Assembly (NCBI GenBank): GCA_031260805.1
Contig: JAISKV010000001.1
Coordinates: 20,978 to 84,977 of the forward strand
Origin: Rickettsiales bacterium
Lineage (GTDB): Bacteria > Pseudomonadota > Alphaproteobacteria > Rs-D84
Direction: 5' to 3'
DNA length: 64,000 bases
Under the pieces are notes generated by a model. The model saw nothing but the letters and a program-made list of their open reading frames with translations. It made no database searches and was not told the origin of the DNA. Of this stretch, positions 51,172 through 51,497 are shown piece after piece. The stretch's first letter is position 1; each line of letters opens with the position of its first letter. A program made the translations under genes and the position numbers.

Positions 51172-51497
51172 GAGCGGCCAGTTCCCCTCCCTTGGAGGGG
51201 TGGCGCGCAGCGCCGGGGTGGTTTACAGGACGGTGAAAGAAGTGAAAATAATAAGTATTTTTACAAATCACGCAGTGATTTGTCATGGCAGATTTAGTCC
51301 GCCATAGGGCATTAAACCTTGTTCGCTAACAAATTTTTTGGCCCTGTTCCGGCCCAAGGCCGGAATGACAAATTCACTTTGTGAATTTGTAAAAAAGTTT
51401 GTCATTACATCCTTAAATCATACTTCATAAATCATAAATCCTGTAAACCACCCCGCCGCTGCGCAGCACCCCTCAAAGTGAGGGGAACTGGCTGCTC
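51172..51497. repeat. MITE-like element with ~58-nt GC-rich terminal inverted repeats
   Basis: Left arm GAGCGGCCAGTTCCCCTCCCTTGGAGGGGTGGCGCGCAGCGCCGGGGTGGTTTACAGG. Right arm is the imperfect reverse complement. About 210-nt AT-rich core with internal hairpins. Right-arm copy at 60426-60487. Confidence 0.75.

Follow-up and report, generated by a model that had tools for sequence, protein, structure and literature searches.

Bacterial miniature inverted-repeat transposable elements (MITEs), such as the Correia elements of Neisseria, ERIC and Nezha, move as whole units, have a conserved interior, are flanked by target-site duplications and have their ends in common with a parent insertion sequence (IS). 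Repetitive extragenic palindromic (REP) sequences are a second class of small intergenic palindromes: those associated with the REP-associated tyrosine transposases (RAYTs) carry GT(A/G)G at the 5′ side of their palindrome (PMC2817692 Table 1), while tagged REPs have been described in eight phyla, the CGTC types mostly in Alphaproteobacteria, as head-to-head (HH) and tail-to-tail (TT) dimers with spacers of 20-100 bp that are often structured, near the 3′ end of the upstream open reading frame (ORF) (PMC3733652). The CGTC-1 REPs, which are the dRS3 repeats of Neisseria and the RPE-6 of Rickettsia conorii (Di Nocera et al. 2013, PMC3733652), occur mostly as dimers with their tags outside and have no known transposase (PMC3733652). 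Here we compare with these systems a 326-bp palindromic element at positions 51172-51497 of a 64,000-nt stretch of DNA from a Rickettsiales bacterium (contig JAISKV010000001.1; hereafter the window), which an initial annotation had described as MITE-like, with 58-nt terminal inverted repeats (TIRs) around an AT-rich core. The sequence analysis points to another kind of structure: the stretch 51139-51522 is probably a concentric mosaic of independent small REP-type hairpin repeats, similar to the bacterial interspersed mosaic elements (BIMEs), and not one transposon.

The palindrome itself is well supported. The two 58-nt arms as annotated (51172-51229 and 51440-51497) are 89.7% identical, and the repeat finder extends them to 74 nt (51157-51230 and 51439-51512; 82% complementary, 208 nt apart), arms of 58-74 nt with 82-90% complementarity being what is expected of the TIRs of a MITE. 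The whole element has a predicted folding energy of -182 kcal/mol, as compared to -95.5 +/- 5.4 in shuffled sequences (z = -16.2), the core alone reaches z = -6.7 on the + strand and -6.0 on the - strand, and the 16-mer of the arms, CCTGTAAACCACCCCG, is found three times in the window where 0.30 occurrences are expected, a number that none of 100 shuffles reaches. Because of these fold z-scores and the 16-mer excess, the palindrome is considered to be beyond chance. The three hairpins annotated inside the core are also present (51264-51282, 51340-51365 and 51367-51391). In the case of a genuine MITE, the 326-bp segment would move as a whole by means of its 58-nt TIRs and a transposase encoded elsewhere, and a solo arm at 60424 would be a decayed copy. 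The long inverted arms around an AT-rich core agree with this and the solo arm could be such a remnant, but several of the observations below count against it, and we regard a MITE as distinctly improbable.

Read from the outside in, the element is made up of a 7-nt tandem array, an inward-facing unit (termed U here), a second 7-nt array, a TGTC-tagged unit (termed V) and a 29-nt spacer, after which the same layers follow in mirrored order, so that 7-nt arrays separate the layers. The left outer layer (51139-51173, + strand) is an array of TTTTAGG and its variants that runs into the left arm, as seen from a row with period 7 at 51139-51160 in Tandem Repeats Finder (TRF) and from the extension of the inverted repeat. 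It is followed by the left arm, U1a (51174-51230, +), which reads CCAGTT, hairpin 1 (CCCCTCC-CTT-GGAGGGG), T, hairpin 2 (GGCGC-GCA-GCGCC) and GGGGTGGTTTACAGGA, then by an inner 7-nt-like array (GTGAAAG AAGTGAA AATAATA; 51231-51257, +) and by V1 (51258-51310, +), in which an AT-rich hairpin, ACAAATCAC-GCA-GTGATTTGT, precedes TGTC ATGGCAGA TTTAG TCCGCCAT AGGGC. The central 29-nt spacer (51311-51339) contains a small hairpin (TTGTT-CGCT-AACAA). Beyond it lie V2, the inverted partner of V1 (51340-51396, -; AT-rich hairpin ACAAATTCAC-AAA-GTGAATTTGT, then TGTC ATTCCGGCC TTG GGCCGGAAC AGGGC), an inner array of 3.9 copies of TAAATCA (51397-51439, +; TRF row 51414-51440), the right arm, U1b (51440-51495, -), and an outer CAAACCN array of 7 or 8 nt (51496-51522, +; TRF row 51499-51517 and inverted-repeat extension), which is a partial complement of 51139-51173. 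Taken together, U1a and U1b form a tags-in dimer (51174-51495).

The unit U is a module of about 46-58 nt, made up of the hairpin CCCCTCC-n3-GGAGGGG, a single T, a second GC hairpin whose stem co-varies freely and the box GGGGT(G/A)G; in the arms, hairpin 2 is followed by GGGGTGGTTTACAGG. In an alignment of 91 units the pattern CC..AGGGG.G...GGGGT.G does not vary, that is, the boxes CCCCTCC/GGAGGGG, TG and GGGGT(G/A)G are invariant around a hairpin that stays paired while its stem is variable. A covariance model built from this alignment (R1) matches U1a with 61.9 bits (E = 6e-16) and U1b with 53 bits. Five differences exist between the two arms, all of them within the local hairpins of each arm, and two compensated pairs and one G-T wobble are among them: relative to U1a, a C-G pair of hairpin 1 has become A-T in U1b, and in hairpin 2 a G-C pair has been flipped to C-G, accompanied by the wobble. 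These differences lower the long-range pairing of the arms, and it is therefore the local hairpins that have been conserved rather than a long closing stem, which argues against a MITE.

The core supports the same view. It is a tags-outside (HH) dimer in which V1 and V2 are inverted around the 29-nt spacer, each with the layout AT-rich hairpin, TGTCAT, GC hairpin, A(Y)AGGG. The stems of both GC hairpins contain one mismatch; that of V1 is 8 bp long and closes a loop of 5 nt, that of V2 is 9 bp long and closes a loop of 3 nt. The two stems differ, and the halves of the core are therefore not copies of each other. Moreover, no second copy of the core (51230-51439) was found in the window or in two contigs fetched from relatives (L111 and L112). 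Both observations speak against a segment that moves whole. The TGTC tags of V (51281, +; 51370, -) resemble the CGTC tags found at 52582 (+) and 52698 (-), and also at 13519 and 28237, and GTCAT is invariant over eight aligned units that include V1, V2 and the dRS3-like copies (52576-52704, 13494 and 28213). The tags-outside dimer at 52576-52704, CGTC ATTCCCGC GCAG GCGGGAAT CCA in two copies whose 39-nt arms are separated by 51 nt, fits the published definition of CGTC-1 (PMC3733652) exactly: its copies at 52582 and 52675 have an 8-9-bp stem starting with A-T pairs, a 4-5-nt loop and the CCA tail. Like these REPs (PMC3733652), V1 and V2 combine a tag, here TGTC, with a stem that begins with AT and an HH arrangement; they differ from them by an additional AT-rich hairpin 5′ of the tag and by their tail, which is AGGG instead of CCA. 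On sequence grounds V can be placed with the CGTC/TGTC-tagged REPs (dRS3, RPE-6). The same kind of V pair is present in L111, between an ORF on the secY side and rpsM. As further observations on such repeats, the spacer 52447-53000 holds a second nested stack, with outer arms (52485-52534 and 52884-52933) around the CGTC-1 dimer, a terminator-like hairpin (52764-52790) and inverted CAGAGTT-type arrays (52785-52985), and a partial dRS3-type copy lies at positions 1-27 of the window.

The arms, in turn, are copies of a unit that is found elsewhere in the window. The solo right-arm copy annotated near 60426-60487 is real and is located at 60424-60481 (U1c, -; R1 match 60424-60475, 63.2 bits), between 7-nt arrays of AATTAAG type (60389-60421) and of AACTCTG (60487-60516). 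Two GC-rich palindromes that had been assigned to a separate family are real as well. The first, annotated at 60117-60313 with a loop of about 100 nt, has a loop of 123 nt and is a dimer with perfect 37-nt arms (60116-60152 and 60276-60312) and its tags outside; its right arm is U2a (60257-60317, +; CCCCTTCG-CTGG-CGAAGGGG, T, GGCGCGC-GCA-GCGCGAC, GGGGTAGTGG; 33.7 bits) and its left arm U2b (60111-60206, -; 19.5 bits), in which the loop of hairpin 1 carries an insert of about 40 nt with a hairpin of its own (CGCGAAAAAC-AAA-GTTTTTCGTG), a further level of nesting. The second, annotated at 20257-20322, consists of the full unit U2c and a truncated inverted partner, CGGCGGCGGGGTAGTGG (together 20250-20322, -; 21.3 bits), between 7-nt arrays at 20225-20250 and 20324-20360. 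The assignment of these palindromes to a separate family was not borne out: the architecture is common to both groups and one model, R1, matches the window copies of both (arms 53-63 bits, second family 19-34 bits), which makes them subfamilies of U. A seventh, weak and degenerate copy (48642-48717, +; CCCCTTCGC...GCGAAAGGGG, T, GGCAGCGGC-GTA-GCCGCTGAC, AGGGTGGTGG; 19.3 bits, E = 0.002) is situated between rpsK and rpoA, and the same match is obtained in an independently assembled contig of the Logan collection (L001). In summary, U occurs singly as well as in dimers of either polarity, tags-in or tags-out, and tolerates insertions in its own loop. The inverted dimers correspond to those of BIMEs and of REPINs (REP doublets forming hairpins), tags-in at 51174-51495 and tags-out at 60116-60312 and in two doublets of L111. 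There is also some resemblance to the tag of the CGTC REPs. Along their C-rich strand, the copies of the second family (60257-60317 and 20250-20310) show CGTC, then a stem-loop and then CCA, while the three arm copies have CGGC or CGCC, not CGTC, at the tag position; an exact CGTC is found in 23 of 95 U units and together with CCA in 19 of 95, the tag position pairing into the stem in the rest.

Outside the window, R1 yielded 103 matches in other loci, corresponding to 100 copies in 59 loci when a stretch that is identical in L127 and L151 is counted once and the two weakest matches are dropped. These loci came from several searches. A gapped 23-base pattern run over the JGI metagenomes had one match, a real U in a contig with sortase and pilin genes of Gram-positive type (L113), and a looser pattern retrieved U in 55 IMG/VR stretches, often with 2-4 copies per contig. 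The 16-mer CCTGTAAACCACCCCG proved too short for a scan of a 596-Gb genome collection, where nearly all of the 108 matches were chance or coding matches; four were true U units: L014 and L102, from the two isolates Chryseobacterium sp. BLS98 and Chryseobacterium jejuense, L085, from a metagenome-assembled genome (MAG) of Chlorobiaceae, and L067, from a MAG of Planctomycetota. The IMG/VR contigs are genuine tailed-phage DNA, with genes for terminase, portal, capsid, tail tube, Mu Gam and lysozyme, and the GC content of U-bearing contigs ranges from 34 to 67%. A BLAST search of GenBank phages and plasmids with two U variants returned no match even at E = 10, which is uninformative, the low-complexity filter having most likely masked the query.

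In these loci the arm is a free-standing module, either alone or in inverted pairs merely 27-34 nt apart (close pairs are seen in L114, L130 and L132), and this argues against the arms being private TIRs of the 326-bp segment. The flanks of different U copies within one contig are unrelated, and the boundaries of U are therefore sharp, with (A)TT before and (G/T)TT after the unit. In two loci (L136 and L164) the same flanking modules are found with and without a 51-nt U insert, and at a homologous phage spacer a U is present in L118 and a dRS3-type palindrome in L156. Copies that come closer to a small MITE, or to a REPIN, are the two tags-out U doublets of about 150 nt in L111 (3658-3800 and 8611-8780), which have conserved ends and a conserved central palindrome. 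With regard to side observations, in the Chlorobiaceae MAG (L085, 5625-5745) and the Planctomycetota MAG (L067, 2120-2240) U is preceded at a similar distance by a second common hairpin, GTACTCCCCCTT(A/G)GCAGGGGGAG, and a longer composite is therefore conserved across two phyla. In L118 the C-rich strand of U lies inside long ORFs (1335-1760 and 1708-2745; translation ...GHPSTGGD...), which are either spurious or in-frame intragenic copies as known for the Rickettsia RPEs.

Other properties expected of a transposon were likewise not found in the sequences available. Target-site duplications, the first check proposed in the initial annotation, are absent at the three arm copies of the window, and 97 units elsewhere have no more direct repeats at their boundaries than permuted flanks. 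The search for a parent element found no transposase family in Pfam scans of 40 window ORFs, the sole recombinase-like signal being a weak Phage_int_M match (25418-26410); no gene family, transposases included, recurs among 119 ORFs that adjoin U units elsewhere. An orthologous empty site was not found for the locus in the nearest relatives, which differ in synteny downstream of rplQ and whose RpoA identity is at most 83% (82% for L111, 80% for L112). Thus, the classification of the arms as transposable-type repeats holds insofar as they are dispersed, small, non-coding and probably non-autonomous, and finds no support insofar as it takes 51172-51497 for one unit with private 58-nt TIRs.

Evidence that U is maintained as a folded unit comes from hairpin 2, which has 68 different sequences among 96 units and nevertheless keeps its pairing, with 4.55 paired positions as compared to 3.56 +/- 0.09 in chimeric controls. 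At alignment pair 31-53, for example, 40 units have C-G, 27 have G-C and 4 have U-A. The folded strand also appears to be identifiable. Among the 96 units, 58 have a triloop GAA, GCA or GTA closed by C-G, and C-GNA-G triloops are characteristic of DNA mini-hairpins (the d(GCGAAGC) literature). The mismatches in these units comprise 21 purine-purine against 2 pyrimidine-pyrimidine combinations, and 6 G-T wobbles against 1 A-C mismatch. Triloops and asymmetries would suggest that the folding strand is the G-rich single strand, probably as DNA.

These features could also be read in terms of RNA, as in the suggestion of the initial annotation that the element is a structured non-coding RNA with a long closing stem. 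More generally, U may be a structured or cis-regulatory RNA, in which the arms are a long closing stem or in which each U acts separately, for example through a Shine-Dalgarno-like GGAGG sequestered by CCUCC, as a 3′ stabiliser or as a processing site. The very stable predicted fold, the covariation of hairpin 2 and the occurrence of G-T wobbles on one strand are all in agreement with this, part of the action of REPs is believed to take place at the RNA level (PMC3733652), and in some phage and Gram-positive-like contigs U stands in sense orientation a few nt past a stop codon and 12-100 nt ahead of the next start. However, at gathering score Rfam 15 reports a tRNA-Phe and nothing else in the whole window, an E-value scan of 51050-51700, covering the core, gave only terminator-driven noise, and 14 other U-bearing loci gave no Rfam match. 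Furthermore, the two arms are on opposite strands, the element follows a strong terminator and precedes a promoter-like site, U is found elsewhere in about equal numbers in sense and antisense relative to the neighbouring genes (using crude longest-ORF gene calls), and the C-GNA-G triloops are typical of DNA. A closing-stem RNA thus finds no support, and an RNA role of any of these kinds is thought improbable. Among other candidates, integron attC sites, group II intron domains, small ribozymes and terminators were dropped, as their defining motifs are absent (no GTTRRRY, no U-tract) or Rfam gave no hit.

A further layer of the mosaic is the heptamers. Nearly every spacer in the window holds 7-nt arrays, usually two in inverted orientation (e.g. 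3217-3311, 11078-11285, 25335-25415, 31532-31664, 40843-40974 and 54934-55754), and the heptamers (AAGGTTT, CAGAGTT, AAGAATT, AAGATAA, GTGAAAA and others) differ between spacers; inverted arrays of this kind would fold into long hairpins with a periodicity of 7 nt. A period-7 array is found within 80 nt of 39 of 106 U units, as compared to 8.0 +/- 2.6 at random positions in the same loci, an excess that is overstated because the control also drew positions from outside intergenic DNA. C. jejuense shows the order seen in the window, namely a terminator, (AGGTAAT)x13, U, AAACCNN arrays and the next gene. L111 has a heptamer family of its own (AGCCCAT/CTATGGG), with inverted arrays in nearly all spacers of its ribosomal-protein operon, which also holds extra ORFs, whereas L112 has compact spacers without such arrays; the heptamer trait is patchy among close relatives. 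Heptamer excess in intergenic DNA has been described for Xanthomonas and Nostoc (PMC4692102). In the window, heptamers also form part of a cassette of about 120 nt (82-98% identity; 37248-37367, 38505-38624 and 42566-42685, and 39826-39935) between ribosomal-protein genes, in an operon whose genes normally lie close together. The parts of this cassette are (AAGATAA)n, a loop TTGCAGAAA, (TTATCTT)n and, just ahead of the next start codon, ACGAAGTGAG. In addition, a 330-aa ORF with a weak match to the central domain of phage integrases begins right after an AAGGTTT/AAACCTT heptamer palindrome (25332-25415).

With respect to its genomic context, the window is a segment of a bacterial chromosome (~50% GC), with dnaA, dnaN and a string of ribosomal-protein genes with secY, rpoA and rplQ recognised in the Pfam scans. 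The spacer that holds the element is flanked by an ompH/skp-like gene (50472-51113) and by a gene for 244 aa of unknown kind (51691-52425). The former ends in a symmetric intrinsic terminator (A8, GC hairpin, T8; 51110-51144, from repeat finder and sequence), a strong one and one of about nine similar terminators within the window, and the latter has a promoter-like site (TTGCAA, 16 nt, TATAAT; 51523-51550, +). The element sits 3′ of the terminator and 5′ of the promoter-like site, and the spacer is probably not transcribed. This position has prompted consideration of a selected barrier, in which a palindrome of 380 nt, extruded as a cruciform or as hairpins, would shield ompH from the promoter downstream or be bound by a nucleoid protein, the units being retained for that role and not spread as mobile DNA. 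A comparable palindromic stack in nearly every spacer of the window, boxes whose invariance across phyla suggests a conserved partner and the location of units near the 3′ ends of genes would all be understandable if this were so. Against it, the content of the stacks varies between spacers, and between related phages at one site, truncated and interrupted units are common, and nothing of the kind is present in this operon in the close relative L112. We consider a selected barrier unlikely.

Since the window comes from a MAG, a chimeric palindrome produced by the assembly was also considered. Both flanks of the element recur exactly in an independent Logan assembly (run SRR14710919); its contig breaks within the left arm (window ~51195) and the sequence restarts at ~51580, so that 51196-51579 has no second assembly. 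Look-ups with the spurious ORFs that span the arms brought up no further contigs. Repeats do this to short-read assemblies, and the interior is thereby left unconfirmed, outside the independent contigs fetched. While this gap is compatible with an artefact, the exact flanks, the compensated differences between the arms (changes that an assembly error does not create) and the finding of the same architecture in isolate genomes such as that of C. jejuense make an artefact extremely improbable. A break inside an arm is, on the other hand, also what a dispersed MITE would cause. As a side note, a run of 12 C at 51586-51597, between the promoter-like site and the start of the 244-aa gene, could be slippage-prone, and Logan contig L110 begins 6 nt upstream of it.

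Returning to the mosaic of REP-type units, its modules were probably acquired separately or swapped in through recombination. A likely route, by analogy with REPs and IS200/IS605, would be the recognition of single-stranded DNA hairpins, with the G-rich strand as the folding strand, by a trans-acting enzyme similar to HUH tyrosine transposases. HUH tyrosine transposases leave no target duplication. A present function, if any, would be secondary, such as a barrier or insulator between the two transcription units or protection of the 3′ end on read-through. Several points weigh against this account. Only seven U copies and about six CGTC/TGTC units lie within the 64-kb window, and a high copy number in the genome would be suggested by nothing other than the Logan break in the arm. 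No mobilising enzyme was found, either as a transposase among the window ORFs or as one recurring beside U elsewhere (119 ORFs). The GT(A/G)G of U is 3′ of its hairpins, opposite to the RAYT REPs, which limits mobilisation by RAYTs to an analogy and makes RAYTs themselves unlikely. The apparent empty site in L136/L164 reflects paralogous module arrays and not orthologous alleles, the strand-asymmetry counts are small, the balance of orientations depends on crude gene calls, and boxes that are invariant across phyla could mean conserved function rather than mobility. A bolder proposal, to which we give a minor chance, is that U is the substrate or footprint of an undescribed system that mobilises single-stranded DNA hairpins, crosses phyla, colonises phages and is mechanistically coupled to 7-nt arrays, or else the binding site of a universal host factor.

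Some further features of the segment touch none of these subjects. The genes dnaA (3318-4595) and dnaN (11410-12531) are about 7 kb apart, with other genes in between, and GC skew is positive over the entire window; from their placement and the skew, the region is therefore probably near the replication origin and within one replichore. A 1323-aa ORF (16224-20195) that matches no Pfam family has tandem repeats of 120 nt and 87 nt (17757-18152), as well as a 90-nt segment present in two identical copies (18716-18805 and 19901-19990).

Compared with known systems, the element resembles bacterial MITEs in being non-coding, intergenic and a few hundred bp in overall length, with inverted ends, and differs in that unit movement, a conserved interior, target duplications and ends from a parent IS were not found for it. 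IS200/IS605 ends and their HUH (Y1) transposases provide a mechanistic analogy, with subterminal DNA hairpins recognised as single strands, strand specificity and no target duplication, and to our knowledge this is the sole mechanism class that fits the observations; a gene of this type was seen beside none of the copies (window ORFs and the 119 ORFs adjoining U). The small dispersed repeats (SDRs) of cyanobacteria and the short tandemly repeated repetitive (STRR) heptamers are similar too: Elhai et al. (2008, Genome Res 18:1484) reportedly described small dispersed repeats within tandem heptamer repeats in Nostoc, as tiny hairpin repeats among 7-nt arrays and nested in one another. Those SDRs have other sequences in another host phylum, U being about twice as long, and lie inside a single array, whereas U is found at junctions between different arrays.

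The closest match is with REPs, BIMEs and REPINs (PMC2817692, PMC3116915 and PMC3733652), which are likewise small GC-rich extragenic hairpins occurring as singletons and inverted dimers with 20-100-bp spacers, form mosaics with other motifs just downstream of genes, have no target duplication and include compensatory stems and decayed or truncated copies. In contrast to these, U has two hairpins and invariant boxes in 46-58 nt, and its boxes recur across phyla and phages while classical REP families are mostly lineage-specific. A canonical RAYT REP was rejected on tag polarity, GT(A/G)G being at the 3′ side of U, after both hairpins, and Pfam scans of the 40 window ORFs gave no Y1 HUH/RAYT gene; from the CGTC REPs, U differs by always having the extra CCCCTCC/GGAGGGG hairpin. 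These comparisons have consequences that (i) for annotation, long palindromes labelled as TIRs can be stacks of REP modules, so that the MITE label needs a conserved interior and target duplication, (ii) such hairpin stacks break short-read assemblies, as in the Logan contigs, and (iii) for CGTC-type REPs, which have no known mobilising enzyme, the related U is a sharply defined bait for the missing enzyme or a binding factor. The motif strings of U had no relevant match in the literature searched, RepRanger (2025) included. While a BIME-like mosaic of REP-type units is already a known kind of structure, the two-hairpin U, its spread over Alphaproteobacteria, Bacteroidota, Chlorobiota, Planctomycetota, a Gram-positive-like contig and tailed phages, and its tie to heptamer arrays look undescribed, judging from Rfam and the literature searched.

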